A stretch of 62,381 nt of DNA, counting the filler, from Bonamia ostreae (taxonomy: Eukaryota), in the NCBI GenBank assembly GCA_040357525.1. It is 21 parts of 21 records of this genome, joined end to end, with 100 filler letters (N's around TTAATTAATTAA, not from the genome) between each part and the next. Parts side by side here need not be neighbours in the genome. Positions count along the whole stretch, not along the records: positions 1 to 2,906 come from JBDODL010000650.1; positions 3,007 to 5,904 come from JBDODL010000651.1; positions 6,005 to 8,900 come from JBDODL010000652.1; positions 9,001 to 11,893 come from JBDODL010000653.1; positions 11,994 to 14,886 come from JBDODL010000654.1; positions 14,987 to 17,874 come from JBDODL010000655.1; positions 17,975 to 20,858 come from JBDODL010000656.1; positions 20,959 to 23,839 come from JBDODL010000657.1; 13 more parts are not named here. One strand, written 5' to 3'. The position numbers and the translations under genes are program-made. Of this stretch, positions 191-62,381 are shown one piece after another. Numbering within the stretch: the stretch's first letter is position 1; the number at the start of each line of letters is the position of its first letter. Under the pieces are notes generated by a model. It had not been told where the DNA came from and did no database searches. It saw only the letters and a list, made by a program, of their open reading frames with translations.

Positions 191-2289
191 ATGTCAAATA
201 AATCAAGTTACAATTTAAACATTTTAGTAATAAACAGTTCAGAAATAAATTCGGATGAAGATAAGGAAAATATTTTTAGCGACAAAATTTTTGTTTCTTT
301 ACTAATAATTTTAAGAGTGAATTGAACAAAACAACAACATTTAAACAACAAAAAGTTTTAAAAACTTAAATTTGAAGAAGCCTAAAGATCCAATAACAAC
401 AAAACATCAAATTTCAAAGGAACAACAAAAAATTTTAAAAACAGTTTAAAAAATAAAATTTTAGCGGAATCAACAAGAACCAACAGAACAAGACAAATTA
501 TTAGAACAAAAAATTAAACAACAAAGATTTTTGGAGCGACAAAAATTATTAGAACAGCGAAAACGGGCGGAAAGAGAAAAGTTGCAGCGAAAACTAGGTC
601 TACCGTTTAAACTGAGGAATTGCAGTCGATTGCGATCACCAAAAAGGGCCAAAATCCCACAAAAACCTGTTTGTGTGGATACGCCAGACGTTCACCCGGT
701 CAAATCGCAACGTCGCAAAATGACATTGTTGGATCGATATCCCTACTTGATGGATTACATCCGCAAAGAGTCGACATTGAGGCATTTTCGACGAAAAAAC
801 GGAACTTTTGTCGACAGGGACAAATTTATAAATGCGGTTAAAAAAGGGAAAATGAACAAAGAGCAAAACTTGCTGTTGTACAAACTGATTGAACGCAAAA
901 ACAAAGAGATGATTTCGGAATGCTATGGACGCAACCCTTCTTCACATCTCAAAGTTCTTCTGACGACGATGAGCCCGCGTTCTCCAAAGTTCCATATCAG
1001 AGAAACTGAACACGGACCAAAGTTCTACAAATACATAGATAATCAGAAACAGTACGTGCTCAAAGACATCGAAACTGATTATGAAAAGAAAGTGTATCAG
1101 AGATTTCTGAGAATTAAAGGTTTTGTTTCTAAAGGTTAGAACTAGAAGAAGAGAGAGAGGAAAGAGAGCGACATGCGATTTGGGAAAAACAGTTTATCTT
1201 CAACGATAGCGACAGTGACGAAAATGACGAGTGGGATTTTTTCGCAGACGGTCCGGTGGTTTTAAAAGTCATTTTTAAATAAGAAAAAAATTATTGTCAA
1301 CGCACAAGAAGACAACGAAATAACTGAAGAACAAAAAAAGTTGGAAAAGGTTCGGAGAAATATTTTTAAAGAAAAGGAGAAAATTGAGTCTGAAAAATAT
1401 AAAAATGACAAAGAAACAAATCTCAAAGAAAAGGAAATGTCTTCAGAAAAAGAAAAAATTTTGGATCTCCAGAAAAGCGAATCTGATTCTAAAAATTTTA
1501 TTTCAAACGCAAAAAATGGCTCGGAAGATCCAAAAAGTTTTTGTTTGCAAGTTTACAGAAATCGAAATTCAAACAAAAAATTCAACGGAAACCGATTTAA
1601 ATGGCGTTTCTGACAAGTCAAAAAACGTTGAGATGAAAAAAAGTGAGAAGTTGAATGTGCAAAAGAAAAAGAAAAGGGGAAGAAGACGCTCTAGCCATAA
1701 AAAGAAAGTTTGTGATAATAAAGAATTTGCAGCACCAAAAGACGAAATGACTTCTGTAAAAGAAAAAGATTTGGATGTCCAGAAATGCAGATCAAATTTT
1801 GAAAACAAAAATTTTTCAACAGAATCTGCAAACGCAAAAAATGAAAATGGCTTGGAAGATTCAAAAAGTTTTGTCTGAACATTTATAGTGAAAATGAACT
1901 GCTGCTCGGAATATTCAAAAAACGTCAAGTCGGAAAAAAATGCTTGTGAAAAATCGAATGCACATAACAAAAAGAAAAGGCGAAGAAGAAGACGCTCGAG
2001 TCATATAAAAGAAATTGTCAATGTTAAAAGAAACATCAAGTTTTCTGAATACTTTTTGAGAAGTTTTTTTTAATAAAATTTAGATATTGTGAATTTTTGG
2101 TCCTTGTTTGTGAAGAATATTTTTGCTGTAAGGAAAGAAATTGCGTTAATAAACCAAAATATTTTTAAGATTTTTAAGTCGTTCAGAGAGAGAAGTCTAG
2201 AGATTTTCGCAAAAATTTCAAGTTTAAATTTTTTGAAAATACGAATTTGTAATATTGGGAGCAAATTGTTGTTGTTTGAAAATGTTTAA
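191..2289 (+). CDS. Lys/Arg-rich protein of unknown function, about 9 tiny introns
   Basis: ATG 191; removing GT-AG introns 207-227, 293-315, 355-377, 444-464, 1120-1139, 1259-1283, 1537-1558, 1868-1888 and 2063-2083 joins ORFs 531, 1341, 1384, 1888 and 2089 into one frame. Confidence 0.7.
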
Positions 2290-3129
2290 GTGTGTGAAAT
2301 GTTTCAATCGAAGTGAATTTTAAAGAGTTGATCGTTTTGTATTTCTTCAATTCTTTAATTTTATTTTTTTTTATTTTACATTTTTTTAAATAAAGTTCTA
2401 TTTAAAGAATTGTTTGTTGTTACTGATAATGTTGTTTCCTTTTTTTTTGTGCCGATATCTTTTCTATTGTGGTTGAAACGAAAAACAAATTTTCTTTAAA
2501 GTGGTTGTTGAAAAAATTTTTTTGATCTCAATAAAATGTAGCAGAAAGAATTGTTGTTGTTTACAAATGTTGTGTTTTAAAAGTGTAACATGTACAAAAA
2601 ATTGTTGTTGTTTTTGTTCAGTTGTTTAAATACTGTGAAAATAGAATGTTGTTTAATTTTATAATAAATCTCAAATCAGCTACACTGTCAGTCATTGGAA
2701 AATTGATTATCTTTGGCGTGTTCATCAGAATATTGCATCTTTTAATGCTCAAGATATAAAAAAATATTTACGATGTTTTCATGTTTTGTATCTTTTATGA
2801 AATTTCACATTTTTGCATCTTTAGTTCATCGTTTTTAAGATTTATTGCCAATTCGCTTAGCATACAATATAGAAGAAGATTTTACATTTTTTTCATTTAG
2901 ATTTTANNNNNNNNNNNNNNNNNNNNNNNNNNNNNNNNNNNNNNNNNNNNTTAATTAATTAANNNNNNNNNNNNNNNNNNNNNNNNNNNNNNNNNNNNNN
3001 NNNNNNAATGTGACCCCCTTCCGTCTGTCAACCTCCATAGTTAATTTGTTGGACTTTTTTCATTCATGGCGTACTTGGACGGGGGGCATATAAACAGAAC
3101 TGCCATATATACAGTACTAATGCTTATAC

Positions 3130-3310
3130 ATCCACCTAGTCAGCTCGTCTCATATGCCAGGTACCCTTGGGTTGAGAAGGTGCACCTGAAGTACAGTGAA
3201 GTAACTTGCCCAAGGTTACAATGATGACGCAGAGTTTTGGTGACTGACTGGACTCAAACCCTGGGCTATGGGGTTTGAATACAAAATGCTAACCATTGAA
3301 CCATCACCTC
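3130..3310 (-). mobile_element. Degenerate CORE/MIR-like SINE remnant (host DNA)
   Basis: AAGTAACTTGCCCAAGGTTACA resembles the CORE-SINE core as read on its antisense strand; followed by GGACTCAAACCC, a reverse B-box-like motif. Confidence 0.55.
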
Positions 3311-3367
3311 CACATAAACAAGCAGATATAATGATATTATAATAATTGTGTCATATTTTGTTTACAG

Positions 3368-4058
3368 GTTTGAGCATTGTGCAAAGTGGCCCTTTGCCAA
3401 CATTTATGAAGAATTTTGATCATATATTAGAGCAACCAACAAGGAGTCAGCAGCAATTTTTAAAAGGCCTTAATCAAGTTGGATTAGTTGATGTAAGGCA
3501 ATTATTTATATCTTGCTTCACAATATTTGAAATGTTTTTATCTTTATCTTGATCCAATGTATTTTGAAGGTCAGGATCCTAGACCTTAAAACTTAGACAA
3601 ACTCGCTTTTGGTTTCAGTCTCACTTTTCAGCAATCAATTCCTTTTGTAAAAGTGAAACTGCAATCAAAATGTGGGCCAGCTAAGTTTTCTGGTTGTTAA
3701 GATGTCATCATGATCACTCAGCCCTTAAAATTTTTAAGCATTGATGTTCAACAGATTGTTTGATGAATTAATTTTAAATTAAAATTCAAAGGCCAAAAAA
3801 AAAAAAAGGAAAATAAATGAAGAAGACAGGCAAGTTTTTAGCTCACCAATTTTTAATGTTTTTTTTTTTTTTTTTTCCAGGTCATTAAGGCAAAACCATG
3901 CACCAGGTTTTTGTTTCAGGCTACTGCAAAAGCCGACATAACATTACGGAAGCTTAAACACCTTCTCCAGCCTAAGTTAGATGAAGCTGGATCAAATAAA
4001 AGAAAAAGGCAAGAAAAGATTTACGAAATCTTTCTTAACTATTTAAAAGAAGTGGCAG
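3368..4058 (+). CDS. Two exons (3368-3492, 3881-4058) of a metazoan G2E3/HECT-like protein (host DNA)
   Basis: GLSIVQSGPLPTF...GLNQVGLVD and ...GSNKRKRQEKIYEIFLNYLKEVA; animal-type splice sites (long poly-T tract + CAG, GTAAGG donor) and a 388-nt intron. Confidence 0.6.
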
Positions 4059-9000: not shown

Positions 9001-9877
9001 TGTCAATGGCATCCGCTATTTCTTTGGTATCAGCATAGACACTTCCACAAAAACCTAGAGCGTTAATCTGCAAAGACGCCAAAGAACCTCGCGTTTTTCC
9101 TTTTTCGCCCGGCAAATTTTGCTTTATTTGGATCTCAGCACACGGCTTCGCCCGCGGCACCAAAAGAAGTCTTTGCCTATCAAAAATCAGATTATAATCA
9201 AATCTGTCTTTTTTTAGTTGCCGTCTGGCGGATTCCATCGCATCATTATAACAAGCCAATAAAGTGCTTTCCAAATTTTCCGCATTTGTGTCGAAAGTAT
9301 AAAAATAATGGGCAAAATCGAATTCTCGAATTTTTGATTTTTTCGATAAAACGGTCGAAAAAAAATTTCCGCTTATTGAGCTGTACGGCATAACTTGCAA
9401 ATGAAAATGGTCTACGGAACGACCCGAATTATAGCCCGCGTTATAGAACGCAAAACTGTCTACGGAAAGCAACAAACTGATCGTTGCCCTAAAATCTGAT
9501 GAGGAAAGACGATCTCCTTGCGCTCTAAAATTTTTTGATGTCAGCAACAGATGATTTTCGAGCACTTTATATTTGTTAAGGAATAATCTGTAATCTTTTC
9601 CTTCTTCGCACAGATTCGCAAATTGGTCGGAATCCATTACAAGAAGTCCTTTTTCAAACGGGGGCAAAAAAGGTTTTTCGTTAGTTGTTTTTTTGTACAA
9701 TGAGATTTTTTCTGGTTCCGAAGAGACATAAATTGAATAGTACGGACTTTTGGTTTCTTCGAAGCCTTTTTTGGTATAAAAAGAATGTCGTTTGGTTCTG
9801 ATCGGCGATAAAGTTTTATAATTGATAGCTGTTTTGGTGGCTTCTTTTACCAAATTTAAAAGTGAAATCTCGGGCAT
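9001..9877 (-). CDS. Ap4A phosphorylase / ATP adenylyltransferase (APA1/APA2 family), 3' end truncated by the contig edge
   Basis: PFLPP, LNKY, FYNAG..SG.S..HFHLQ (HxHxQ) and INALGF motifs. Confidence 0.9.
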
Positions 9878-10036
9878 TTGGATTTATATTATATTATTTG
9901 AGCTTATTATTTAAGCTTGATTTTACAGGGAACAATGACCAATGTGCTTGACGCTCATTTTAAGACAAACAAAAATATTACATTTTGCTAATTTGTTCTT
10001 AACATTTAGGATCACCAATATTATTTTTGTTGAAAA

Positions 10037-11893
10037 ATGGCGAATCACAGGATAACTAAAAAAATTCAGAAAAAACACAAAAAGATATCAAAAAGAAAAA
10101 GTCGAGGTTTTAACTCAAATTATATTGTCCTTTAAAATTTAAATTTTCGTAACAAAGAAAAATTTGCAAAACGGCAAATGGAAAAGATTAGCTCTAAAAT
10201 TCCTAAAACAACAAAAAAACTATCGAAAACCGAAAAAATCAACAAAAACCGCCAAAAAAGATTAGAAAATCGCAGATTTTTGGCAAAATCGTTAAAAATG
10301 AAATTGGATTCTCCCAAATTAGCCGTTTTAATACAAATTTTAGATATTAATACCAATATCTCTGCAAAATCTCGAAAAATCTTTTGAAACTTCTGACCTT
10401 CTCCAAAATGTTGAAAAGATAACGTTTTTAAATAATGTGGAAAAAACAAATTCCAAAATATTTTTAAGCAAATTCCAAAATTTGGAAAAAAACAATTTAA
10501 ACTAAAAAGTTTGGAAAAACAAAAAGAAATGAAAATATATCATCTTTCGGAAAACTTTAATAATTTGGCCATTTTGGACGCGTCAAAAATTAGCGATTTG
10601 ATAATAATTGAAATAAAAGTAAACGAAGAAAGTGAATTTGTGAAAATAATCGAAAATTCAAAATTTTTGGATAAAATAAAAAGATTGAGCACTTTGTTGA
10701 TATCACAAGGTTGTCCTAATTTGATAGTTTTGTTGAACTGTGGTGCAATGTCAATGAATAAGAAAGTTATTCAAAAAAGAAAAACAATTTTGAAAAGAAT
10801 GAGCACTTTATTTTCTAAATTTTTTAATAACAAAATTCGTGTTGAATTTAAAGACGTTTTTATTCTAAATTTTACAAAACTTTTAAAAAAAATTTATTAA
10901 TCAATTGCGAAAATGAAAATAAATTTATTAATCAATCGCAAAAAAATTTAAAATCGCAAAATTTAATTAAATGACAAACAGAATGAAAGACTGCATCGAA
11001 TTCTTAAATCCACAAATACTCCAAAAATAAATTGGAGAGACAAAAGAACTTTTCTCGTTGCAGACCAAATTCAATTTAAAAACAAAATTTTATCTCTTGA
11101 AGGAATTTTAAGAGGAGATATTCCGTTAAATCCAACTCTCAAAGTTCATTTGACCGGTTTTGGCGATTTTGAAGTTTTGTCGGTCGAAAAAGATTACGAA
11201 AAAATTACCATTTTTAACGAAAAAATGGACAAAAATCGATTATTTGAAAATGGCAAAAATTCGATCTTCGGAAAAAATGAAATTGATGAAAAAAAACATA
11301 AAAGAGAAATCTTGGAAAAGTTGAAAATCGACGAAAAGGAATGCCAAAACAGAAATTTTACTGTTTTATAAAAACAACTTTTTCGTTATTAAAATCGTTT
11401 TCTAAACAAAAAAAGATGGAATCGAAAAAATTGGATATCAAAAACGAAGTTTTGACCCCCGTCGACAAACCAGCTCGACTGCGCTTCTACAAATACAGAG
11501 GATTGCAAAGTTTAGCCAAATCTCCTTGGCGCAAAAATCCACTTCCAAAACATTTAGAAAACCTCTTTTCTCCACAAAATTTTGGCGATTCGATAAAAAA
11601 TATGAAAAAAGAAATTGAACATAAATTAAAAATTCAAATTAATGGACAAAACGAAAAGAAGAGCTTTAAAATGGATGAAATAAGTCCGTGGCAGAGGGTA
11701 AAAATCAATGTTAAAATTGATTTGGAGATGGCTGAAAAGGTTTGTGAATATTGGAATGGCGGAAGTCGTTTTGTCATCTTGTCTAGTCTTTTCGAAGATG
11801 AATCTATACGTTCTGTTGTACATTTTAAAGTTTTTATTAAAAATTGGCGATTTTTGTTGTTGAAATTTCGAATTTTTGCGATTTTGTGTTATT
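10037..11893 (+). CDS. TSR1: Pre-rRNA processing protein TSR1, partial, multi-exon
   Basis: WRDKRTFLVAD, GILRG..LNPTLKVHLTGFGDF, PARLRFYKYRGLQSLAKSPW; includes a 19-nt intron at 10325-10343. Confidence 0.88.
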
Positions 11894-11993: not shown

Positions 11994-13658
11994 TTTTCTC
12001 AACGAAACATTTTCCGTTTTGAGAGCTTTATTCGTTGATTCCAAACGCTTTTTGATATTTTCGTCGTAATTAATTTTCTTTAAATTTTGGAAAAGTTACT
12101 TTTGTCTCGTCATGAAAATCGGTAATGATTTTTTCACTGTTCAAACAAAAATTGTATTTTTTCGCAACATTTTTTCCCAATCTTGAATTCAGCCGCTCTC
12201 TCAAATTTCTACATTCCAATTCGCTTTTCCGGAGTCTGTGCTAAATTTTAAATTCGAATCTTAACTTTGATCGCGTTGAACTTTCCGATGAAAACAGCGC
12301 AATCTTTCTCAATTTGGCTCAATTGCTTTTTATATTTTTTTGTTTCCAAATTTGACCTTTCTTCGTTTTCTCTAAATTGGAAAATTAAAATTTGAACTTT
12401 AGTTTTATCGAAATTTGATCGTTTTTTCTTGTTAGAAAATCATTGTTATTTTTAAGTTCGTTTAAAAGTTTCAATTTGCGTTTGTTTTCTTTTTCCAATT
12501 TATTGATTTCCTCGAAAGTCTAATTTTTGTAATTTAAACTTCGTTTTTAAACGATTCGCCATTTTTGATTTCGGATAAAAGTTTCGAGACGACATTAATA
12601 CAATTTTCTTTGTCTTCCAAAGACTGGTTTTGGAAATTAATTTTTTCAAAGTTTAAGTCTATTCCAAATTTTCTGGAAGCCAATTCTTTATTTATATGAG
12701 CAGCTTTATTTTCAAAGTCCGAAATAGGAATTTTTCTTTGATTTTTATGGCAGAAAACCTTTTGGTTGGCAATAGTGAATTTTCGTTTTTTGCAGCCATT
12801 TTCTTTTTTTATAAGCTCAGAAATTTTTGGTGATTATATGTGAATTTGTTAATTGAAAGTTTGTAAAAATGGCGTGTTCGTGTTAAAATTTTTATTAAAT
12901 TCCAATTCTGAAATTCCACAATTTTTTCTTTTCGACGTACTCCTTTTTGAAGCCGCCCGCAAAACAAACTATTTTCCTAAATTTTGAATATTTTTAACTG
13001 TTTTTTGTTTTTATCTTTTTTGACAATAGTCGGAAATTTGAATGAATGAGCTACGAATTGTATATCGTTCGAGGATTTTTCGATCAAACGAACACTGTTT
13101 TCTTCGTTTTCCTAAATTTTGAAATTTGTTACTTTTTTGCGTCGACTTATCAATTTCGAATAGTTTTCTTTTAATTCTAAAATTTGTCGCTTCGCTTTCT
13201 CTTGTGTTTCAGTTGTTCCTGTCGTTAACATATTCACTTTGAGATTGTTGAACAAAACGTATTTTAGCTATTTTGTTGTAATAGTCAAAAAATTCTTTTC
13301 CGTCGTCAAAATCTTCTTTTTCTAAAATAGACCTGAAAATTAATAAAATTACAAAAAATTTAGTTTTTTCCTCGAATTTATTTGTTCGTAATATTTTTGT
13401 CTAAAAAAGGGATCTTTCACAAAATCCGTCTTTTTGAGCTTTTTTGTACAATTTTTGCAGCGAAAATCAGATTTCTTAGAAAAGTTTTCGTTTATGCAGC
13501 CGAGACAACTAATTATTGAATCTAGAAAACAGAGTCAGTCCACAACAATTGCTGTAATACAATTTTAAGCTTTTAAAATTTCTTTTTGTTAGTTTGCATT
13601 CTGGACAATTATTGGAAATTTCAAAAAAATCTTTGTCCCATAATAAATTATGTTCCAT
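11994..13658 (-). CDS. MNAT1: CDK-activating kinase assembly factor MAT1/TFB3-like RING protein (absent from the ORF track; 3' limit uncertain)
   Basis: ATG 13658; CPECKLTKRNFKSLKLYYSNCCGLTL-[22-nt intron 13509-13530]-CLGCINENFSKKSDFRCKNCTKKLKKTDF matches the spacing of the MAT1 N-terminal RING. Confidence 0.7.
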
Positions 13659-24351: not shown

Positions 24352-25570
24352 TTAATTAAAAATCGCCATTACCAGTAAAACGTATTGGTAACTCAAATAA
24401 GCTGTTTTTTCTAAGGACCGATCATTCTGCCAGACAACAATTTCTGGATCTTGAGCAGATATTTCTTTGAACCAGTTGATTTCGTTTTTGTAATAATGGG
24501 CTGGGCATTCTTCTCTCATTAAAAAATTGGCAACTATAATGTCATTGTCGCTCAGTTCTTCGCTATTGCCCACACAACAGTTTCCCCCGTTGTAACCAAA
24601 TAAACAGCACTGAAATGTTAAAATTATGCAACATTTAAATTGTACAAATATGCTTTTTTGGTTACACAAAAAAGTTGTAAAATTATTGATACATCTCGAC
24701 TAGTAAAGACAACCTCTGGTTCATACCCCTTTCGAATTTTTATCGTTTGTCCTCTCGGAAAATCTCTCACTTTTCCCGGACAACGAGACCCTGAACATAC
24801 AAACGAATTTAAGGAATAGTGCATTATTGACAGAAAATCGTACGGTGTTATCATTATGCCCTCCGTTTCTTTTTTGAAGTTTTGCAAGTATTCCGTTGGA
24901 ATGTTTTTGTATAAGATTTGGACATATTTGTCTCTATCGGGTCTATTTTTTCTAATTATTATGAAACCTGCTGTGTTCGTGGTACATTCCAATGACATGG
25001 CCTATTTCGTGAATAATGTTAGAAACTGAGCAGCTATCACTCACGCCTACTTCATGGGCCTTCATTCCTGGGATTTTCCCTACATAGGATTCACATCTCG
25101 AGCTTGGTTCGAATATCAAATATTCGCTTTCATATTCGTGTTTTTTAAACCTCCAATTACTCTGTTAATGTTATTGTAACAATGTGATGGGGAAAAATAT
25201 TGCTAAAGATGTATCCATTTAGAAATATTTTCAAACCTTTTTTTGCCAATGATTTAAAGCCTTTAGAATAGTTTTGACTGACTTTTTAGATAACTCGGAA
25301 TGAAATTTGAAGGGGATTGGGCAATCCCATCTTCTCGATGGTCTCAATATTGGAGATTTAGTTTTATATCTGGCTTTTTTGCACATATCCAAAGGTACTT
25401 TTATATCATTCTTTGTTATTTTTATTATTCAAAACATCAATATAACATCTTTCAACATTTTTGCCAATTTTACAATGAATTAAATCGACATTTTCGCCCT
25501 TCAAAACAATACATTTTTCACCAGAAGCCAGTATTAATGTTACCATTAACAGTGTTTTTAATTGGAACAT
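24352..25570 (-). CDS. Astacin-family (M12A) zinc metalloprotease with signal peptide and hydrophobic C-terminus
   Basis: CESYVG...IIHEIGHVIGMYHEHSR-[25-nt intron 24943-24967]-PDRDKYV...YDFLSIMHY (Met-turn)...VGNSEELSDNDI; start MFQLKTLLMVTLILASG. Confidence 0.92.
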
Positions 25571-38040: not shown

Positions 38041-38200
38041 ATTTGTTTGCAAAACAGTTTTTCTATTGTTATTTGTTTGCAAAACAGTTTTTCTATTGTT
38101 ATTTGTTTATAAAACAGTTTTTCTATTGTTATTTGTTTTTAAAACAGTTTTTCTATTGTTATTTGTTTATAAAACAGTTTTTCTATTGTTATTTGTTTTT
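38041..38200. repeat. 30-bp minisatellite, 5+ copies, intergenic
   Basis: ATTTGTTT(GC/AT/TT)AAAACAGTTTTTCTATTGTT at 38041, 38071, 38101, 38131, 38161. Confidence 0.95.
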
Positions 38201-38905: not shown

Positions 38906-40021
38906 CTATACGACATATCCAATCTCATTTCCAACTTTTATTTTCTGCCCCTCTCTAATTCGAAAAAGAAAGTTTTTGTCTTCCGGAATGTCGTACAAAA
39001 CGACAACGGATGAGCCGATTTTGAAGAACCCCAATTCCACGATTCTGAAGGTGTTTATAAAAACTTTGGCATTTTTATGCCGTTGCTGTTTTCCTCCTCG
39101 AACAAAATTTCTTTTTGTGCGTTTCGCTGTGGCAAATTGGTGCTTAGCTTGGGATCGATAGTCTTCGACAAGACTATGCTCCCGACATTCAACGCGCCGA
39201 TCGGGGTGACAGAGCAATATCCATGTTTCCAGGTTCCTTCTAGCACAACTCTTTCATTGCTGCACAGCATAGAAGGAATCAGATTTGTCATAGAAGAGTT
39301 CACTGGCAGAAGATTTCCCGAAAAGTGTTTCAGTCTTTTAATCGACCATTTAACGGGGGAGTGAAAGCGATGGTAGTCTCCAGGGCTTAAGTAGAAAGCC
39401 ACGAAATGCAAATTTTTGGCTTGTTCCTGTGATCTCCCGGTAAATTTCTTCAGCGAGAATTTTATCCCCTTCGCATCGATCATCTCCCCCTCTTTCAATT
39501 TCCCGAAAGAGGACACTCTCCCGTCTACTGGCGACACCTAAATCGGCGAGAAGATTATTTTTACGATGGCGAAATCCCATTTACAAATTCAAATAATTTA
39601 TATATTTATAGAAAACGATATCAGAGTCTGCGATCTTTCTGTACTTTTCGATGTCGAGAGTTCGAGAGAAAAAATCACCAAAAGAACGAAACGAGTTTAA
39701 AGGTTGTACTTCGCTCAAATCTTCATTTTTATCTAAAAACTGATTCCGTAGATCGCAGAATAGCTGTAAAAAATGGGTTTGCGTAGAAAGTTGGGCACTG
39801 TCTGTGTGCTCAAAATCCCAGCAATCCGAGACAAAAAACGCAGTGGAAGCGATTTGTAGAAAATGACCTTGTAGAAAATGTTATAGAAACCCTGAAATTC
39901 CCTTGTCTGGGCTCTTTCCGCCTTAAATAAGAAATAGAAACTTTTTGAAGTAATAGAAAGAGAGGCTCGCGGCCACCACTAGAGAGCCTTTGAGCACTTT
40001 CGGTTGGAAAAGTTTGTTCAT
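38906..40021 (-). CDS. PISD: Phosphatidylserine decarboxylase, mitochondrial type
   Basis: SLPLRFLSR, SPVDG, YLSPGDYHRFHSP, NERVVLEG.WKHG, GALNVGSI, GFFKIGSSVV; several tiny introns. Confidence 0.92.
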
Positions 40022-42765: not shown

Positions 42766-44633
42766 ATGAGACCGAACGATAAAGCGGATTTAAAGGGGGT
42801 CAGAAAAAGATTGCTCTTCTGGGGGAGACCAAAGAGCAAAGTTTTTAAGCGGCCATTTGAACTAAAATCAAAGTTTTAAAGAGCAAATCTTAAAGACTGA
42901 GAAAAGCGACAAAACAGACAAATTGCCTTGCAAAGGTTAACATCGATTCCCCTGATGCAAACCAGAACAAATTTTTCGAGCAAAACCCTGCCACCCCCGT
43001 TTCAAAACAGAAACGGAGTTCTTTAAACTATGCCAGCAAAAGACCAAATGGCCGGTGGTACAGAAAAAAGGGACAACAATCAAAATATATCGCCATTAAC
43101 GGAAAAGTGTTCGAAGGCTTCCAAGCGTTCAAACAAAGCCTACTTGACAAAGAGAGTGTAAAGAAGCGTTTAGAATTAGAATCCGCTCAAAACAAGAATA
43201 CGATTAGGAATAAAGAAAATGAGCATCTTTTAAAAACATACGGGATTCCGGCCGAAATGGATCGAGTCTATCGCCAGAAAGGCGTCAACCGGTTACACCA
43301 ATGGCAAATCGCTTGCTTAAAGAAAAAGGGTGTTTTGGAAGGAAAAAATTTGATTTATTCAGCGCCGACAAGTGGCGGGAAAACGCTTAGTTTATAATGT
43401 TATAATTCGCAGTTGCCGAAACTCTGATGATTAGAAGAATGCTCTCCAAAAAGGGGAAATGCATAATTGTGTTGCCTTTTATTAGTTTGGTACAAGAGAA
43501 AAGCGAAGATTTAAGAAACAAGCTTTGCCCGCTTGGGTTTTCAGTTAGGTCTCTCCATTCGAGCTCCCCACTCACATTGCCGAACAATGTCGATGTCATA
43601 GTCTGCACAATAGAAAAAGCCAATTTACTCGCCAATTCGTTAATGGACGATGGAACAATTAAGAACTACTTCGGCACTGTCATCATCGATGAGCTGCATT
43701 TGATAGGAGATGAACACAGAGGCTTTATTTTGGAACTGTTGTTGACAAAACTCAAAACTGTAGGCGGGGAACATCAGATAATAGGGCTTTCCGCAACTCT
43801 CCCGAATATCGGTAAACGATTATTATAAACAAAGGCGATTTGGCCAAATGGCTTGACGCAGAATTGTTCGTTACCGATTTCCGACCTGTTCCATTGACAG
43901 AATTTTATCTAATCGGTTCAACTGTTTACAGCAAAGCTGGAAAAAGAATTAAAGAAATGGGCAAAAATAGCGCGGACAATGTTTTGTTGCGATTTTAACT
44001 TTTTAAAGATTTTCGAGCTGTGCAAAGAAGTCGTGGAAAAAGAAAAATCTGTTTTGATCTTTTGTCCGTCCAAAGATGGCTGGTTAGATTTGTAATTTTA
44101 AGTAAAAGGAGTGCCAGAATGTTGCTTGATAAAGCAAAAAGTTCGAATTCAAAGGCCACCGACAATGATGAATTAACAAAAAGGTTTTCTAATGTGACGT
44201 CAAATATAAATCAGGAAAACTGTTCTGGAAAGATTGAGGCAACTGCCAATAGAAATTTGCGAAGTTCTGAAAGAAGCGATTTTGTACGGAATAGCGTATC
44301 ACCACGCCGGAATGACGATAGAAGAAAGGGACATTGTTGAAGTTGACTTAATCTTCATCATCTACACAATAGGCGGCGTTCAGGAAAAGGACGATAAATG
44401 TCCTAAACGCGACTTCTACTCTCGCCGCGGGAGTGAATTTACCCGCTTTCAGGGTGATTTTCAGATACCCGTATGTCGGAGCAAATTTCATCTCTGTGTC
44501 AAAGTTTCTTCTTCGACAACCACAAAAATCAAGGTATCAACAAATGAGTGGAAGAGCGGGCAGAAGTGGCATAGACGACGTTACATTTTATATTGATGAT
44601 TTTAGAGAGGCGAGAGTTTTTTGGTTGCATCAA
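42766..44633 (+). CDS. POLQ: POLQ/HELQ-type Ski2-like helicase N-terminal region, partial
   Basis: WQIACL...[74 protein letters not shown] versus HELQ cannot be settled without the 3' part. Confidence 0.8.
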
Positions 44634-50949: not shown

Positions 50950-51052
50950 TTAGATGATTAGGCAATTTTCAAATTCTAAATCTCAAACTTCACATATCAA
51001 AACATCTTAACACTTTTTCGAACTTGCTAAATTTTAGACTTTAACCTAACCG

Positions 51053-51304
51053 ATGGAAAACAACGAAGGAACTATCGTCGACAAATATGTGCCTCGGAAG
51101 TGCTATTTGACGAACAGGATCATCACGTCCAAAGATCACGCTTCGGTGCAGTTGGAATTTGCACTACTTGACGAAGATGGAATTTACAGAGGTCAGTCCA
51201 ACACACTGGTTCTTAGTGGATACGCACGCAAAAACGCTGCCTCTGATGGCGCGATTAACAAGTTTCTCCAAGAAAATGACATGATTGAGCCGTTGTTCGA
51301 CTAA
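51053..51304 (+). CDS. RPS21: 40S ribosomal protein eS21
   Basis: MENNEG..VDKYVPRKC..TNRII.SKDHASVQ. Confidence 0.97.
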   Translation: MENNEGTIVDKYVPRKCYLTNRIITSKDHASVQLEFALLDEDGIYRGQSNTLVLSGYARKNAASDGAINKFLQENDMIEPLFD

Positions 51305-53520: not shown

Positions 53521-53829
53521 NNNNNNNNNNNNNNNNNNNNNNNNNNNNNNNNNNNNNNNNNNNNTTAATTAATTAANNNNNNNNNNNNNNNNNNNNNNNN
53601 NNNNNNNNNNNNNNNNNNNNAACGAACTCATTAACAAAAACAAAAATCAAAAAGAAAAATATAAATAAAAAATAAAAATATTTAAAAATAAAAACACAAT
53701 ACATACAAAAAGACAAAAATAAAAAAAACAAGTATAAAAATATATATAAAAAATAAACTAAGACAAAAATAAAAATTTATAATATAAAAAAAACAAAACA
53801 AAAATATCAAAGAAAGAAATATTTTCAGA

Positions 53830-56405
53830 GAAAAAGAAAAAAGGTGGCTCAACAAACAATATTGGATTTGTTTTTACAAAAGAACTGGACAGTCTCATCA
53901 AAACACTTAAAAAAACGAGCAATTTTTTTGTCCGTTGCGTCAATCCCAATAAAAATAAAGTTTTTATTTGTAAATCCAAATTCAAATTTTTTAGTCGTCG
54001 ACTGAATTTGATATTAAACATGTAACAAAACAATTGAGATCGGGTGGCTTGGTACAAGTCTTGAAAGTAATAAAATTGGGATATCCGACAAGAGCAAAAT
54101 ATGAAACTTTAAAAAATTACAAAACAAAAATCGCAACACATCCCATTCTCGAAGATTTGACAGAAAAGGATTATTGGAGAGCCATTTTAGCTGCTTTCAA
54201 TACCGATACTGACAAATTTACATTTGGTCTAACTAAAGTTCATTTTTGCGCTTATTCAAATATTGAAATTTTTGCAATTTTGTTGACTAAAAATTAAAAA
54301 TAAGCAACTTTAAATATTGAAACGTCAAATTTTTGCAATTTAATAAACAATATCGATTTAATTAAAATTTCTTAATTTAAAAGATATTCTTTAAACCAAA
54401 CATAAACTTCATTGCAAGCATCAAAAATTTTGATGGCAATTTGACAGAAGAAATGATCGCCAAAATCAGAACGCTCTTCGTGAGACAGAGATTGCAAAAA
54501 ATAAAAGGTCTCATTTTCACTTATTTCCGCGTCGCCGCAAAAGTCGACACGAAAAAAATTCTACGCCTCTTTTCAAGCGCCGTTGTTACAAACACCGCCA
54601 TCAAAACGAGCTTAACAACAGTTCGCGAAAAAATTCGAAAAGAAAAAGAAGAAGCGGAAAAAGAGAGAAAGCGCCAAGAACAGCTTCGTTTGGAGCAAGA
54701 AAGACGAGAAAAGCAAATCGAGGAAGAGAAACGCCGCGCGGAAGAAATGGCGATAAACCAACAGCGCTTATTGGAAGAGAAAGAACAACGGATGCGCGAA
54801 GAAGAGAAGAAAGCACAAGAACTGCAGCAGAAAAAGATCGAAGAGATCAGAGAAAAGGAAAGACTGATTCAGTTGAAAGAAAAAGAAGAGATTTTGAGGA
54901 TCGAAGAGAAACAGAAGAGAAAAATGGAAGAAATGAAGGAAAATCTGGCGAAGAAAAGAGAAGAAGAATATGCGGAAATGACGCGAATCAAAGAAGAATT
55001 TGAGAGTGAGCATGAAGAGCAAAAGAAGAGAAAACGAGAAGAGATTGAAGCACTTGAAAAGAAAATCGTGGTTTTGAAAGAAGAAGCTCAAGTTGTTTTT
55101 GCGAAAACAGGTTATTTTTGTTGTTGCAAAATTATTGATCGCTTTTTAATAGAAAATTTTGATCGCTTTTTGTTGCAAAATTANNNNNNNNNNNNNNNNN
55201 NNNNNNNNNNNNNNNNNNNNNNNNNNNNNNNNNNNNNNNNNNNNNNNNNNNNNNNNNNNNNNNNNNNNNNNNNNNNNNNNNNNAAATTATTGATCGCTTT
55301 TTAATAGAAAATTTTGATCGCTTTTTGTTGCAAAATTATTGATCGCTTTTTAATAGAAAATTATTGATCGCTTTTTGTTGCAAAATTATTTAAAAAAAGC
55401 TGAAGAAAAGGAAAACCAGATCGAAAAAGAAAGAGAATACGAAAAGAAAGTGAGAGAAAAGTTGGAAAGAGAACGAGAAGAGGCTCTGAAAAAAATCTTT
55501 GAAGAATCGAAACAAAAATCGGATGAAATGAGCACAAAATTATCCCAAATCGAACAACAGAAAAGAGATGAAATCGAACATCTTTTCGCAGGTTTGTTTA
55601 CAAAAACTAACCACTTTAACCTAAAAATCAAAGAAAACGAAAAACACATGGAACGAAGAAAAGAAGAAATAGATTTGTACGAAGTTTATTAAAAATCAAA
55701 TTTAAAATAGAAAGAAAGTAAAAAAAGAATAAAGTTGTTTAGCGAAGAAAACATTGAACATTTCGAACAAATGAAAAAATTTTCGCAAGAAAACCAGAAT
55801 AAAATGAAATTAATGCTCGACGAAAAAACTGAACAAATCGAAATGTTCATTTACAAATTTTAAAAAAAATTAAAATTAGTAAAAACAAAGAACTGGAAAA
55901 ACTGAAAACGGATCAAGAAAAAGAACATCAAGAGAAAATGGAAGAAATCTCATTTTTGAGAGAAAAGGAAATGAGCGATTTGAAGCATTTCAAAGAAATT
56001 ACTGAAAATGAATTGGAATACAAAAAAAGAGAACTTGAAAATGAAAAGGACAACGCGATCAAGTTTTGTGACTTTAAAAATCGTTACGTGCAATGATAAA
56101 AATTTGAAAATAAAAGATTGGAAAAAATGTTCAAAGAGCAACTGGAAGAACTTGCGAAAAAGAAGAAATCGCTTCGATCTAAAGAATCGCGATTGAAAAG
56201 AAAAGAGCTCTCCAACAAATCGAGATCTTTGGAAAAGTACCAAAAGGAGTTGTTGGCGACAAAGAACTTTTGTGAAGAAAAATCTTCAATAATTGAAAAA
56301 ACGAATTTGATTTTGGCTGAATTTTGCGACTCTGAAAGTATTTTGTTATCTTTGAAAACTAAGTCGAGAAAGGATATGGACGAAAGTGTCAGTGAAGCTC
56401 TAAAC
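53830..56405 (+). CDS. Myosin heavy chain fragment: end of motor, neck, ER/K-rich helix and coiled coil
   Basis: FVRCVNPN, QLRSGGLVQVLKVIKLGYPTR, FGLTK-[intron]-IFFK, long E/R/K-rich tail. Confidence 0.9.
55126..55390. repeat. Intronic minisatellite of alternating 24/25-bp units spanning a gap
   Basis: AAAATTATTGATCGCTTTTTAATAG alternating with AAAATTTTGATCGCTTTTTGTTGC. Confidence 0.85.
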
Positions 56406-56769: not shown

Positions 56770-58360
56770 TTATTCAAGTTTGCTGGGATCCAACAGAATA
56801 TTCGCATTCGAAGGCAAATAAGAAACGTTTGGCGCTTTCGCCAAATTTTCCGTCACTTGTTTTGCCGTCTCTATTTTCCGCAACTTCAAATTTTTGATAT
56901 TAAAAAATAAAACTTTTATTAGTCCATTTCCGCTTTTTTGAAGAGCGTTCGAAATCAGTTTCGCCGCCTCCGATTCTCCTTCCGATTTTATAACAGCGGC
57001 TGCTTTTTCGTGCTCGCTTTTTATCACCATAAATTTGGCCCTCTCCGCGTCTTGTTCTGCTATTTGCTTCTGCTCTATCGCTTTTGAGAATTCCGGGGAG
57101 AAAGAGAGATGTGTCTGAGATGATTTTTTAGAACAAATGAGATTTCGAAAATTTATAAAATCATTTCAATAAAAGTTGAAGATGGTGAAATCGAATGGGT
57201 CAAATTTAGCTTTAAAAACGATAGAAATGTCATCGAGGACAATGTTGAACTGTCCTGCTCTGACAGTCAAAGTTTCGTTGATTTGTTTCGATATTTTTTC
57301 TCGCATTGTTATTAATTCGTCGGCGTTATATTGCGCCTATTTTGAAAAGCGAAAAAATAATTAAAATGGCACAAATATGTTAAAAATGGCTAAGAACAAC
57401 AAAAAACATTAAAAATGGGTTAAAATGGTGAAAAAATAACAAAAAACAAAAAAAAGACATTAAATAATCAAAAACAACAAAAAATGTTGGAAAATAGTAA
57501 AAAACAACATTAAAAATGGCGAAAATTAGCAAAAAAATAGTGAAAAAAAAGATATTAAAAATGGCGGAAAATAATAAAAAACGACATCAAAAATGGCGAA
57601 AATTAGCAAAAAATAGTGAAAAAAAAGATATTAAAAATGGCGAAAAAATAACAAAAAAAAACAAAAAAAAGACATTAAAAATGGCGGAAAATAGTAAAAA
57701 AACGACATTAAAAATGGCGAAAATTAGCAAAAAATAGTGAAAAAAAGATATTAAAAATGGTGAAAAAAATAACAAAAAAACAAAAAAAAGACATTAAAAA
57801 TAACAAAAAATGCCGAAAAATAGTAAAAAATAGTGAAAAAAGACATTAAAAAAAAGCAAAAACACAAAATAAAAACAACAATACTCTTCAAAACTTCATT
57901 TCCAATCGAAGGCAAAACTCTCTCTTCAAACGACTTTCCCAAATTTCTGTAAATAATTGGAATTTTGGTTTCTCTCGGATGAGATAAAATTCTCAGCGAA
58001 ATATTGACTTGTTGCAAGTCCTTCGTCCCCGTGATTGAAGTTATCGTCCTTGGCCGTGTCCTCACTTCGAACAAAATCGCTTTCTTACCATTTACAAAAT
58101 TGTAAAACATCAAAATAGTAAAATATCTTTTAAAAACTTGCACGAACGGAATGAGGAAATGAGTTCCTTCTCCGTAACTCTTATCGAGGATCCCTGAAAA
58201 ACGGGAATAAATAATGCCGCGGTGACCAGCTTTGACTATTATTCTCAAAATTTGGCAAACCGTCAAAAATGAAATTTTGAGCCAGAAAAGCTGCAGACCC
58301 GAATCCAAGAATGACAGATGGAAAGCCTTTTGCCATTTTAAGAAATTGATTTGCGTTCAT
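56770..58360 (-). CDS. PHB1: Prohibitin (PHB1-like)
   Basis: [66 protein letters not shown]. Confidence 0.92.
57360..57870. repeat. Composite low-complexity tandem repeats filling a prohibitin intron of about 540 nt
   Basis: Recurrent ATTAAAAATGGCG(A/G)AAA and ATTAGCAAAAAATAGTGAAAAAAAGAT units. Confidence 0.85.
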
Positions 58361-58620: not shown

Positions 58621-59323
58621 TCAATAACTTTTGATGTCGGCACCCCTTTCCTTTTTTAGAGCACAGTAATCGTCAAAGTTGAGACTCGACTTTTCGCTTT
58701 GATATTTAAAAATCTGCAAATCGCCCCAAACATCTTTATAAGACCCGCCAAAATTCGATTTTCTAATCAAATTTTTTATGGTTTCTTCATGGTTCCAACC
58801 CTGTTCTTTTATCACGTCTGGCAAGAATGTCGCGGAATAAGAATTATCGTCTTTTTTGAAGACTATCAAAATTCCATGTTTTCCTATCTAAAAATAAAGA
58901 TTTAATGGTTGAAAAAAGTTTCGTTCTTAGTTTAAGTAAATAGGGGAAAACTTTCCAATCGTAAAAATCTTTAGCTTTTTCGAATGGCGAGAGAATCGAG
59001 ACTTCGCAAAGAAGATGTTTGATTTCCTTCTTCTGAATCGGCTTAAACCTCGAATCGAAAAAAGCGCTTCGAACGGAAACGCTTTTGAGAGAATGCAACA
59101 GATTTTTAGATTGGAAAGTACCAGTGCAACCTTTTAGCTCTTTCTTCTTGGAACTATCGTTTTTCCAAGAAACGAAAAGGGAATTATCGGAATTTTCTTT
59201 GATGAGCGAATCGTCGATTTTGTGGGAATTGTCAAAATAGTTTAAAATTGAATCGAAACAAAGAGCGTTTAAATTTGAGTTGTTTTTTGGAGAACGTTTA
59301 ACTGAAATTTTTGGTTCTGACAT
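58621..59323 (-). CDS. AMMECR1: AMMECR1-family protein
   Basis: LFVSWK...LKGCTGTF...SAFFDSRFKPI...CEVSIL..FE...DWK-[intron]-IGKHGI...ATFLPDV..EQGW. Confidence 0.9.
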
Positions 59324-59530
59324 TTCGGAAATTGAGGTCGTAGCTGATTTGTATAACTAAGGAAAAAAGTGGAAGGAAATTTGGATAAAAAATAACGTTT
59401 TGGCTAATTTTTCTATATACAAAGACGTGANNNNNNNNNNNNNNNNNNNNNNNNNNNNNNNNNNNNNNNNNNNNTTAATTAATTAANNNNNNNNNNNNNN
59501 NNNNNNNNNNNNNNNNNNNNNNNNNNNNNN

Positions 59531-61817
59531 CTCTCTATTGAGACATTTGGCGATCGGTTTATTATTACAAAAATTAAAAAGTGCAATTTTAGATATTTTG
59601 AAAAATAATATCATTCCGATAACGACAACAAATTTGGTTCGCTTTCAGTTTCCTCACTTTCAAACTCAAAATCGCTACTTTCGCTTCTCTCTTCGATCTC
59701 GATTTTTTCATTTTTATCAAATTGACCCTTTTTGATTTCCAAGAATTTTTTCGCGAATTCAAAGTTTTCGCTCAAACTCTCAATTTCGTTTGAAGCAAAT
59801 TTGGTGACAAAATCGCTATTCGAAAATTCTGTCTCAAAATTGATTTGGTTGTTCTGGACTATTTGACTCGCCATTTTCGATATGATCGGGTTAATATGTC
59901 TCTCTAAAAATCTCTAAAATTTTAAATTCAGCCAAAACCATTTCGACCATTTGTTCTCCGTTCGCAAAAGAATGCCTCGGATTTCTAGCGTCATATTTAT
60001 AAGCTTTATTACCAATAAAATGTAATTACATTTCGCACATTCTTTGAAATTTTTTTCGTTATCGAAAAGGTAATTTTTGATGAATTTCTTTGTTTTGGTC
60101 AGTTCGAAAATGGTGATTAAAGCTTTGCAACTAAAAGAGTCACTTTGCAGTGCACAAAGTTGCAATAATCTCTTTACGAAAGCTAAAATCCGACATTCGT
60201 CCGCGTCTTTAAGAATAGATCGATATATTAAGCTCAAATAAATCGTGTGCTTGTTTTGAGCGTTTTCTAATGTTGTCGACAACATTGAACTGTACAAAGC
60301 GTTATAAAATCTATCCGGAAATTGCAAATTCTTCGAGTAGATCTATTTCCAAATTTTTAATTTCAAAACGTTGAACAACAGAGAAAGTGATTGAATAATA
60401 GTTGGTAAATGCGGTAAATGCGTTGATTTGTAAAGAGCGTCTAGTTGTTTTTCGGACTTTTTAATTAATTTTACATTGGACAAAATTATTTTTAATTTTT
60501 TATTGTTAGTTTTCGGACTTTTAATTACATATATTGTTACAATTTTAAAACAAAATCAAAATTGTCTGTAAAAGGTAAAGCTCTGTTAATGGCACAGAAC
60601 AAAGTCGAAGCAATTTTGAAAGTTTTTTCGTCGTTAAAGTTTAGCTTTGAAAATAAATTTAGCAATGTTTTGATCGTTCGAATGGCCAATTTTTTCTCGA
60701 TTTCGTGTTTGCTATAGCGAAACTTCATTTTATTAAAACTTAAAAAAATAACTTGAGAAATCAGAACAACTGCGTAAAATGAATTTTTGTTATTTTTGGA
60801 ATTTAGAAACTTTTCAATTTCTTTAAACACTTCGATTTTCATTCCCGGATGTTCTCTGAACAAAGAATTGAAATATAATAAAGTCTAAATTTTACAGAAT
60901 AAGACTTTTGCGATAATTGTTTTATTGTTGGAAAAAATTAATCTTGTCAACGCGCAAAGAATTTCTTCTTCTTTCTCCGATTTGGATTTTAAAATTTGGA
61001 ACAAGAATGTTAAAATTTTGACTTGGTACCACTCAAAATTAGTTTCGGATAAAATCTTTTCACAGTTATCTGTGAAAACGCAGAATTCTCTTTTCAGCAA
61101 ATCTTCGTAATGACTATATTTGGATTATGAAACAATGCCAAGAGAGCTTTATCGGAGTTTGTAGCGAGTTTGGAAAAATTATTTTTGAAATTTGATAATT
61201 TTCTGTTCGGCAAAAGATTGTTTATGAACAGATCTGTCAAAAGTTCGGCGATTACAACGGACTAAAAATTAATATTTAGCCATTAATTTAAGATAAAACG
61301 TGTTTTGGTTTTTGAGTGGAAAAGCGGTTAATCAGTTGATGCAATAAATCGATTTGATGCAAAGGGGAATCGATTATTTTGCTGATCGAAGAGTAAATTT
61401 TGTCTTTCGCGGCGCCTTTTTTGTCGATTAGAGAAAGAAGATTTTTTGATTGTTTTGTGGAGAAAATTTTGATTTCTTCTTCGTAGAGCATTTTTGCTCG
61501 TTTTAAAGCCTAATCAATGTACACTAAAAAACTTCATCTAAATTGTTGTAATTTTGCTTTTTCGGTGTGTACTTTAATTTTGTCTTTATATTCAAGTCTT
61601 CGAATATTTTTAGTTTTTCTTCTTTTGGCATTTTCGGAAAAGGCTCATTTTGGATAAAATTTTGTTTGCTGGAAATGGCTTTTTTTGCGATATCCGGATT
61701 ACCATTTTTTAAAGATCGTTTCGGTTTTTTCGTTATATGGGATAGATCGACTTTAACAGACTTTCTGTCTTTTTTGCCAAAACTCATGAATCCGCTAGAA
61801 AAAGTCTCTGAAACCAT
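59531..61817 (-). CDS. CEBPZ: Ribosome biogenesis factor CEBPZ/Noc1/Mak21, 3' end truncated
   Basis: HPGMK..V, INRALPF, PDRFYNALY, YRSILKD...RILAFVKRLLQ, YDARNP. Confidence 0.88.
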
Positions 61818-61897
61818 TTTGTCAACTAAATGTAAATTCGTATTTTAATATCTAAGTTTTTACTATATATAATTCCAATTTTTAGTCATTTCAAATT

Positions 61898-62381
61898 ATG
61901 CTAAAAACGGCGAAGTTCATCAGAAGCAGTAAAGTCAGACTTTTCAAGGACAGAAACGCTCTCAATAAAACCATTTTGGCGCTAACTATAAGACCGACAG
62001 CAAGCTCTTCTTTAAAAATAGGCGAGATGTCTGACGATCCCGAGATCTACAAACGATTCCCTAAAAACCTGAACGAAAACCAAAAAGAAAACATCGGCTT
62101 TGTCTCGGATCAAGAATTCAAGGAAACTGAACAAGAAATTATCGTTCCAAAACTTAAAATTTAGAATCACGGCAAAAAAAGAAAATGGCATTGGATGCTA
62201 ACAGAAGGAGTCGATCATTGGCAACGGAAACTATTGATTTTTTACATTCTCGGCTTATATTGCGGTATCGGCATTTTAGGGATCACTTCACCGACTCCGG
62301 CTGCCAAAGCTCTTTTTTTCTTTTTGGTCCAGTCGTTTATGGTCGCCTCAACGTTGTTATAAATATCTACGTAAATCAACC
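61898..62381 (+). CDS. Probable mitochondrial membrane protein (possibly SDH4/SDHD-like), partial
   Basis: Basic presequence-like start; a 21-nt intron near 62144-62164 gives ...GVDHWQRKLLIFYILGLYCGIGILG; family assignment is weak. Confidence 0.4.

Follow-up and report, generated by a model that had tools for sequence, protein, structure and literature searches.

This report concerns the introns of a 62,381-base stretch of AT-rich nuclear DNA (GC 29–37%; hereafter the window, at its full length), whose source appears to be the oyster parasite Bonamia ostreae or a very close relative. Protein-coding genes of the window are interrupted by segments that are probably genuine U2-type GT-AG introns of a haplosporidian, with a donor reading GUUU(U) and a choice of 5′ splice site that would rest on changed machinery. 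Introns of all length classes share this transformed donor, G-U-U-U-(U), which lacks the G at +5 and comes without a preference for G at exon position −1. The genome is intron-dense, and most introns are 19–35 nucleotides (nt) long, with a tail to about 450–550 nt.

The donor signal of 24 anchored introns

Twenty-four introns were anchored without recourse to donor context: five by contigs of an independent public run (X1), eight by Pfam profiles, two by a homologous protein (P0001) and nine by a Bonamia protein (P0019). All 24 are bounded by GT and AG. Twenty donors read GTTT, two GTTA, one GTTG and one GTAA, that is, GTT in 23 of 24. T occupies +3 in 23/24 introns (A in 1/24) and +4 in 20/24 (A in 3/24), while G was found at +5 in only two, the others carrying T (13), C (5) or A (4); +6 is T in 10/24. 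On the exon side, G stands at −1 in only 7/24 and A at +1 in 14/24. These counts agree with the original prediction, made from the sequence of the window alone, which had described GTT-type donors with rare GTA and hardly any +5 G and had proposed an altered recognition of the 5′ splice site. The donors do not show the purine at +3, A at +4 and G at +5 of canonical GTRAGT, and none of them has the ATCC at +3 to +6 of U12-type donors (/RTATCCTT).

The predicted TAG, AAG or CAG acceptors were likewise recovered: AAG ends 11 introns, CAG 7, TAG 6 and GAG none. The 12 bases before NAG are A/T-rich (A 46%, T 38%, C 12%, G 4%) and form no pyrimidine tract, as had been anticipated. Motifs resembling yTrAy are visible by eye within the introns and are uninformative in sequence that is 80% A/T.

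One could argue that these are real introns served by ordinary or merely reduced machinery that needs only GT and AG, a proposal already made for myxobolids and Dicyema, the TT being a by-product of AT- or T-rich sequence. The low GC content of the window fits such a view, as does the fact that 20.3% of all its GT sites already read GTTT. In animals with ultrashort introns the 5′ signal has shrunk to 'GTa' and the 3′ signal to AG (PMC13644364). The nine short introns of the HELQ gene described below include the donors GTTAGA, GTTGAC, GTTACA and GTAAAC, and T at +5 is found in 6/15 introns of up to 35 nt versus 7/9 longer ones. However, T at +3 and +4 lies far above composition: intron interiors are richer in A (43%) than in T (38%), yet A occurs at +3 once, and composition therefore cannot explain the T bias. 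Among the 20 introns whose solution is unambiguous, 16 begin with GTTT, compared with 20.3% of all GT sites in the window (p = 1.8e-8). Moreover, all nine introns longer than 50 nt have a GTTT donor, and since proximity is of no help to these, a real signal must be read. We therefore regard this explanation as unlikely. The 5′ signal is transformed, not relaxed; the 'relaxed' recognition that had also been suggested is at odds with two nearly invariant positions, +3 and +4, that composition leaves unexplained.

Contigs of run X1 skip five introns of a Tsr1-like gene

The comparison with X1 covers positions 9001–11893, of which 68% of the sampled words occur in that run; a second run, X2, contributed no contig here. 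X1 contigs are colinear with a single-exon Ap4A phosphorylase gene, leave the intergenic stretch 9900–10014 uncovered and join across five GT..AG-bounded segments of a Tsr1-like gene, one contig being 1848 nt long. At three of the five joints the GT..AG ends were reported by the alignment tool itself. Without the five segments, one reading frame that starts at an ATG stays open through 487 codons, compared with 19–50 stops in the unspliced frames. The joined sequence resembles spliced cDNA, subject to the caveat on the type of X1 weighed below. The introns of this gene are as follows.

10107–10157, plus strand: intron of 51 nt, GTTTTA..AAAG; in an X1 contig 10104 is followed by 10157, with an extra G at the joint
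10325–10343, plus strand: intron of 19 nt, GTTTTA..TTAG; missing from the 1848-nt X1 contig
10424–10509, plus strand: intron of 86 nt, GTTTTT..AAAG; X1 contig joint with GT..AG ends
10856–10981, plus strand: intron of 126 nt, GTTTTT..ACAG; X1 contig joint with GT..AG ends
11363–11415, plus strand: intron of 53 nt, GTTTTA..AAAG; X1 contig joint with GT..AG ends
11830–11835, plus strand: GTTTTT, donor of a sixth Tsr1 intron; an X1 contig departs from the genome exactly at 11829 (loose end)

The extra G at the first joint would be accounted for by a GT..AG intron at 10107–10157 together with an A>G difference at 10105. For the sixth intron, the letters of the loose contig end are absent from the window, and the acceptor probably lies under an N mask.

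Over about 1.8 kb (10105–11790), the X1 contigs and the window show seven listed base differences in addition to the one at 10105, suggesting that the two data sets differ in strain or allele.

Introns anchored by Pfam profiles and by a SNF2-family homologue

At ten junctions, consecutive parts of one Pfam profile were found in different frames, and every frame-consistent deletion was listed. GT..AG ends were the search criterion at such homology-anchored junctions; eight of the ten have a GT..AG solution, and each of the eight includes one with a GTTT donor. From site frequencies, GTTT..AG would be expected at 2.15 of the ten (P of at least 8/10 = 6e-6). The eight introns are listed here.

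24943–24967, minus strand: intron of 25 nt (or 16 nt, acceptor 24952), GTTTCA..ATAG; Astacin 37–100, then 96–150; two GT..AG among 107 solutions, with the donor common to both
25162–25236, minus strand: intron of 75 nt, GTTTGA..ACAG; Astacin 2–33, then 37–100; sole GT..AG among 148 solutions
26066–26120, minus strand: intron of 55 nt (or 43 nt, donor GTTCTG), GTTTAT..AAAG, SDF/EAAT-like gene; SDF 201–264, then 271–379; two GT..AG solutions
33096–33117, plus strand: intron of 22 nt, GTTTCG..AAAG, GOST/LUSTR 7TM gene; GOST_TM 6–58, then 55–241; two GT..AG solutions, the other being 33101–33125 with donor GTCACT
39045–39064, minus strand: intron of 20 nt, GTTTTT..TCAG, phosphatidylserine decarboxylase gene; PS_Dcarbxylase 25–150, then 160–197; four GT..AG solutions, of which the shortest, with a GTTT donor, was taken
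53960–53994, plus strand: intron of 35 nt, GTTTTT..TTAG, myosin-like gene; Myosin_head 536–591, then 593–678; sole GT..AG among 290 solutions
57115–57219, minus strand: intron of 105 nt, GTTTTT..TCAG, Band_7 gene; Band_7 104–142, then 144–166; sole GT..AG among 1437 solutions
58888–58951, minus strand: intron of 64 nt, GTTTTC..TTAG, AMMECR1 gene; profile 2–107, then 107–167; sole GT..AG among 317 solutions

Two further introns were fixed by P0001, an 885-residue SNF2-family protein of a related organism that is 41–58% identical (tblastn) to the SNF2-family helicase of the window.

31895–32342, minus strand: intron of 448 nt (containing a 10-N gap), GTTTTT..AAAG; P0001 ends ..IIITS and resumes YVML..; sole frame-consistent GT..AG
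30206–30236, minus strand: intron of 31 nt (or 40 nt from 30245), GTTTCT or GTTTTC..TCAG; break of P0001 at residues 762–771; eight GT..AG solutions, both of the two shortest with GTTT donors

Nine introns of a HELQ/PolQ-like helicase gene

P0019 is divided into ten blocks that all map exactly onto the window, and each of the nine gaps between them contains exactly one GT..AG among the protein-compatible cuts. Because P0019 is an annotation product, its junctions were checked against homologues. From 149 homologues the top 25 were used, which are distant helicases with 39–47% identity through the helicase core. Eight junctions lie in the conserved core; five of these are gap-free in 25/25 alignments and the other three fall in variable loops. 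The nine introns, in order, are the following.

42873–42895, plus strand: intron of 23 nt, GTTTTA..AAAG; one GT..AG among 4 cuts; outside the core, annotation only
43390–43412, plus strand: intron of 23 nt, GTTTAT..GCAG; single solution; gap-free in 25/25
43812–43834, plus strand: intron of 23 nt, GTAAAC..AAAG, the sole GTA donor; one GT..AG among 5 cuts; gap-free in 25/25
43981–44008, plus strand: intron of 28 nt, GTTTTG..AAAG; single solution; variable loop, with gaps nearby in 7/25
44083–44102, plus strand: intron of 20 nt, GTTAGA..TAAG; one GT..AG among 2 cuts; gap-free in 23/25
44184–44214, plus strand: intron of 31 nt, GTTTTC..TCAG; one GT..AG among 4 cuts; variable loop
44342–44372, plus strand: intron of 31 nt, GTTGAC..ATAG; one GT..AG among 4 cuts; gap-free in 25/25
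44504–44533, plus strand: intron of 30 nt, in frame, GTTTCT..CAAG; one GT..AG among 3 cuts; its 10 codons are missing from P0019 and from 25/25 homologues
44580–44605, plus strand: intron of 26 nt, GTTACA..TTAG; single solution; gap-free in 25/25

Intron lengths and predictions across the window

The anchored introns are 19, 20, 20, 22, 23, 23, 23, 25, 26, 28, 30, 31, 31, 31 and 35 nt long in the short class and 51, 53, 55, 64, 75, 86, 105, 126 and 448 nt in the long one. The original prediction had held that dozens of introns of 17–28 nt restore the frames of conserved proteins and had thought that length might define them. The anchors support the reality of such frame-restoring tiny introns. 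The proposed length range was too narrow: 15/24 introns measure at most 35 nt, only 10/24 fall within 17–28 nt, and 9/24 span 51–448 nt. Nor are nearly all lengths held within 1–4 nt of each other, and since introns of 19 to 448 nt occur and the longer ones carry the same GTTT donor, definition by a fixed length can be set aside. In the Band_7 gene (57337–57894, minus strand), the step from profile position 100 to 104 spans about 550 nt, and every frame-consistent GT..AG solution there measures 456–558 nt, with GTTTT or GTTGTT as the donor of three such solutions; the genome thus has introns of about 0.5 kb beside others of 19 nt. Density is high, with nine introns in 1.9 kb of one gene and six in 1.8 kb of another.

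A chain guided by a position weight matrix (PWM) trained on the anchors predicted 75 introns in the window, 46 of them of at most 40 nt. It recovered 14 of the 24 anchors and made ten calls in verified stretches, eight true and two false. 'Dozens' of tiny introns in the window are thus plausible, as a count that rests on this model. When a flat penalty was applied instead, GTTT was found in 20 of the 33 chosen donors (p = 5e-7), and control donor dinucleotides were followed by TT at background frequency. In the class of up to 40 nt, this chain gave 16 introns for GT..AG versus 3–12 for nine control pairs; TT..AA reached 22 on double the number of sites.

Several measures were discarded. A naive coding-potential count yielded 33 introns for GT..AG versus 31–66 for 11 control dinucleotide pairs, so that the count itself is no evidence for GT..AG. 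A first PWM chain placed two false introns within X1-supported Tsr1 exons. Enrichment by termini among segments joining open reading frames (ORFs) was noise (214,425 joiners, CG-rich termini on top). A junction test based on ORFs only (301 junctions, median 613 solutions) gave a GTTT..AG ratio of 0.96 versus 0.41–1.07 for controls and was too weak.

Five introns had been singled out as examples in the original prediction. Two of them are anchored, 10325–10343 by an X1 contig and 24943–24967 by the Astacin profile; the other three only join open frames and are kept as unverified candidates.

293–315, plus strand: candidate intron of 23 nt, GTTTCT..TAAG; joins open stretches of 60 and 17 codons; predicted by the PWM chain
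13509–13530, minus strand: candidate intron of 22 nt, GTTTTC..TTAG; joins open stretches of 51 and 52 codons; not predicted by the chain; read-through closes after 7 codons
52558–52585, plus strand: candidate intron of 28 nt, GTAACT..TAAG; joins open stretches of 20 and 21 codons; not predicted by the chain; lies upstream of the Carb_kinase profile match and hence has no homology anchor

Evidence against the intron interpretation and weaker alternatives

A number of points weigh against the interpretation preferred here. The sample amounts to 24 introns from one 62-kb window, and in four of the 24 the GTTT solution was chosen among several GT..AG solutions, which leaves the unambiguous subset of 20. 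The GT..AG ends of the nine P0019 introns were built into the annotation pipeline. By coding-potential statistics alone, GT..AG is indistinguishable from control dinucleotides in the window. Two of the ten Pfam junctions, in SDF near 26293–26360 and in SNF2 near 31545–31661, have no GT..AG solution. At the latter (minus strand), fixed by P0001 (..KALRPG followed by GILGD..), no GT..AG is found at the homologous point, and the options are a 73-nt intron from GTTTTAC (31617) after a 16-residue A/T-rich insertion, or a non-canonical intron, for which GA..AG would fit. The records give no library type for X1, RNA being only a guess, and its joints by themselves are no proof that the segments are removed from RNA; were X1 DNA, they would mean that segment-free copies exist as DNA. 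Finally, an Rfam scan of the window returned no family at gathering score or at E<=1 and hence no match to a small nuclear RNA (snRNA), and the mechanism is put forward below in conditional terms.

As to the SDF/EAAT-like junction (26293–26360, minus strand), no frame-consistent GT..AG lies between the frames with profile 73–214 and 201–264. A GTTAG..CAG 25-mer is present but runs into a stop; the cause may be a sequence error or a pair of introns around a micro-exon.

That the segments are artefacts, either insertions from assembly or sequencing or errors of gene models, is very improbable. Scaffold gaps (100-N and 10-N runs) do occur, two of ten PWM chain calls in verified stretches were false, and in the naive chain frame-restoring 'introns' are no rarer for control dinucleotides than for GT..AG. 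Against this, GT..AG bounds 24/24 anchored segments with a common donor motif, the contigs of an independent run that differs from the window by 7 bases skip exactly five segments, and P0019, a separately deposited NCBI record, requires the same nine cuts. Removal at the DNA level, like that of ciliate internal eliminated sequences (which have TA ends) and with the joined form present as DNA in some nuclei, would suit a run that is not recorded as RNA, but it is the least probable explanation of all, given that GT..AG ends with an NAG acceptor are hallmarks of the spliceosome, that X1 contigs skip the intergenic 9900–10014 as transcripts would and that nuclear dualism is not known in haplosporidians.

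Possible recognition of the GUUUU donor

The canonical U1 5′ end, ACUUACCU, pairs with a GUAAGU donor. With a GUUUU donor it should form only about two Watson-Crick pairs (+1 and +2), and for this reason the choice of the 5′ splice site in spliceosomal introns of this kind would have to rest on changed machinery. Three routes may be considered, in order of likelihood. First, the 5′ end of U1 snRNA may have co-evolved to pair with GUUUU, as the ACAAAC of Entamoeba U1 does with GUUUGU, the donor of 88–90% of introns in that genus (bioRxiv 10.1101/2022.06.08.495308). The same preprint describes another compensated U1 variant in Mastigamoeba. It also weighs on the opposite side, by reporting atypical donors without a compensatory U1 change in Thecamonas, Mamiellales and 69 yeasts, so that U1 co-evolution is not the rule.

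Second, recognition might be carried by U6, whose 5′-ACAGA-3′ pairs with donor positions 2–6 (bioRxiv 10.1101/2022.06.08.495308). GUUUU(U) would form four of five pairs, including one G-U wobble; for GUUUUU the scheme would be A-U, G-U, A-U, a mismatch at +5 and A-U, which is better than GUAAGU at +3/+4 and worse at +5. Third, proteins of the TIA-1/Nam8 type that bind U-rich RNA could take part. In mikrocytids only the U2, U4 and U6 snRNAs were found (PMC10245619). For the tiny introns, the short distance from branch A to AG would help, as in intron definition; length would not be the defining signal.

Source organism and gene content of the window

The exon 43406–43825 is 99% identical to P0019, that is, NCBI MES1920427.1, titled 'hypothetical protein MHBO_002095, partial [Bonamia ostreae]' (full-library HMMER search; one gene), and on this match the window would derive from Bonamia ostreae or a very close relative (Haplosporida, Ascetosporea, Rhizaria). 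The published GC content of Bonamia ostreae, 33.3%, is in agreement with the window (PMC11069148, Table 1).

The eS21 gene (51050–51301, plus strand) is a single exon and scores 78 bits with a PDB eS21 chain. Its best scores against PDB chains are 78–74 bits, with chains that we take to be from Euglena, plant and fungal ribosomes, and another group of chains, presumably mammalian, scores about 55 bits; judged by these scores, the organism does not look animal-like. An animal source (myxozoan, dicyemid or orthonectid), which the Astacin and DUF2650 matches would suggest, was rejected on these scores and on the match to P0019. The ESM Atlas yielded no informative taxon. In a word index of 5.8 billion proteins, which seems poor in eukaryotic proteins, only eS21 itself shares words with it. 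The Carb_kinase exon gave nothing in the same index, where blanks mean little.

Pfam scans of the open frames found ordinary eukaryotic nuclear genes across the window. They comprise nucleic-acid genes (SNF2-family helicase, HELQ/PolQ-like helicase, CID, BRCT and KH domains), ribosome and translation genes (Tsr1, eS21, CBF/Mak21, ABCF ATPase), membrane and trafficking genes (Snf7, sedlin, GOST 7TM protein, SDF/EAAT-type transporter, Band_7, HECT), genes of metabolism and mitochondria (Ap4A phosphorylase, phosphatidylserine decarboxylase, AMMECR1, UCR_hinge, Tim17), an astacin-like protease and the end of a myosin motor. The 430 stop-free codons of a homology-supported exon fit the standard genetic code, for which reason a ciliate was rejected as the source; an anaerobe was rejected in view of UCR_hinge and Tim17. 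The window is interrupted by N masks at regular intervals and by a few assembly gaps (runs of 100 N and 10 N), and a tRNA search of its whole length gave no match.

Three loci stand apart. The astacin-like metalloprotease gene (24355–25428, minus strand) matches Astacin profile positions 2–150 across three exons and is followed by a short match to DUF2650, presumably a family described from nematodes; it is an unusual protein for a rhizarian parasite. At 53783–54294 (plus strand), the match to Myosin_head is confined to profile positions 536–679, and an open frame of 267 codons comes after it. Since its immediate upstream neighbours are an N mask and a gene for Carb_kinase (NAD(P)HX dehydratase), the myosin motor is truncated, hidden or misassembled. 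Between exons of an ABC ATPase gene, 38039–38198 is a tandem array of a 30-nt unit (5.3 copies, 96% identity); read on the minus strand, every unit consists of what looks like a perfect 23-nt intron (GTTTTATAAACAAATAACAATAG) and 7 further nt.

Comparison with known systems and implications

Entamoeba shares with the window U at +3 and +4 in nearly all introns, the setting of an AT-rich parasite and a donor unable to pair with canonical U1. It differs by keeping the +5 G (97–98% GUUUGN, against 2/24 here), and no ultrashort introns are described for it in the preprint (bioRxiv 10.1101/2022.06.08.495308). Entamoeba is also intron-poor, whereas the window has 6–9 introns per 1.8–1.9 kb of gene, and its modified U1 has been shown, whereas a modified U1 is a proposal here.

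The mikrocytids Mikrocytos mackini and Paramikrocytos canceri belong to the same class, Ascetosporea, and likewise have extremely short introns (PMC10245619). In that account their introns are all 16–17 nt long, number 224 in 179 genes, are highly conserved in sequence and are served by a reduced spliceosome (PMC10245619); they are thus fixed in length and few, in contrast to the dense introns of 19–448 nt in the window. Heterotrich ciliates (15–16 nt) and chlorarachniophyte nucleomorphs (18–21 nt) have introns that are likewise near the physical minimum of the spliceosome (PMC10245619). Theirs occupy a narrow range of lengths; here the distribution is broad and the genetic code standard. The ultrashort introns of myxobolid myxozoans and Dicyema japonicum, known since 2026, have the donor 'GTa' (PMC13644364), whereas A stands at +3 in 1/24 introns here. 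Both groups are animals, unlike the organism of the window as far as eS21 can tell.

The Bonamia ostreae genome paper calls the introns 'canonical' and gives a mean of 2 per mRNA and an assembly N50 of 1.4 kb; its main text and four supplementary text files contain nothing on intron length or donor consensus (PMC11069148). If the window is typical, the published mean is probably an underestimate. Public annotation (MES1920427.1) already implies nine introns of 20–31 nt, a fact that is present in databases and was not found in print. Our literature search, which left most subscription journals outside, returned no description of this donor or of such intron lengths in Bonamia or haplosporidians. 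Older papers on haplosporidian actin genes reportedly describe small introns.

Atypical strict donors have so far been tied to lineages of intron loss, six of which are listed by Roy & Bowser (bioRxiv 10.1101/2022.06.08.495308). More tentatively, and with less confidence than we place in the introns and their donor, haplosporidians might be intron-dense organisms whose whole intron set has shifted to GUUU(U) and is read by a re-tuned or U1-independent early spliceosome, having either a U1 with an A-rich 5′ end or, as mikrocytids seem to, no U1, the 5′ end of the intron then being defined by U6 ACAGA and proteins that bind U-rich sequence. If true, strict atypical donors would no longer go hand in hand with massive intron loss, and the 16–17 nt introns of mikrocytids would trace back to a common ascetosporean ancestor whose introns were already tiny.

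A transformed donor in a genome this rich in introns would be a natural test of the co-evolution of splice signals and snRNAs, and also of the minimum sequence that a spliceosome needs to remove introns of about 20 nt without a +5 G or a pyrimidine tract. Bonamia is an important oyster parasite, and its genes will be broken by gene finders and read mappers that assume GTRAGT and default minimum intron lengths (often 20–50 nt). The introns described here also bear on whether tiny introns are ancestral in Ascetosporea.

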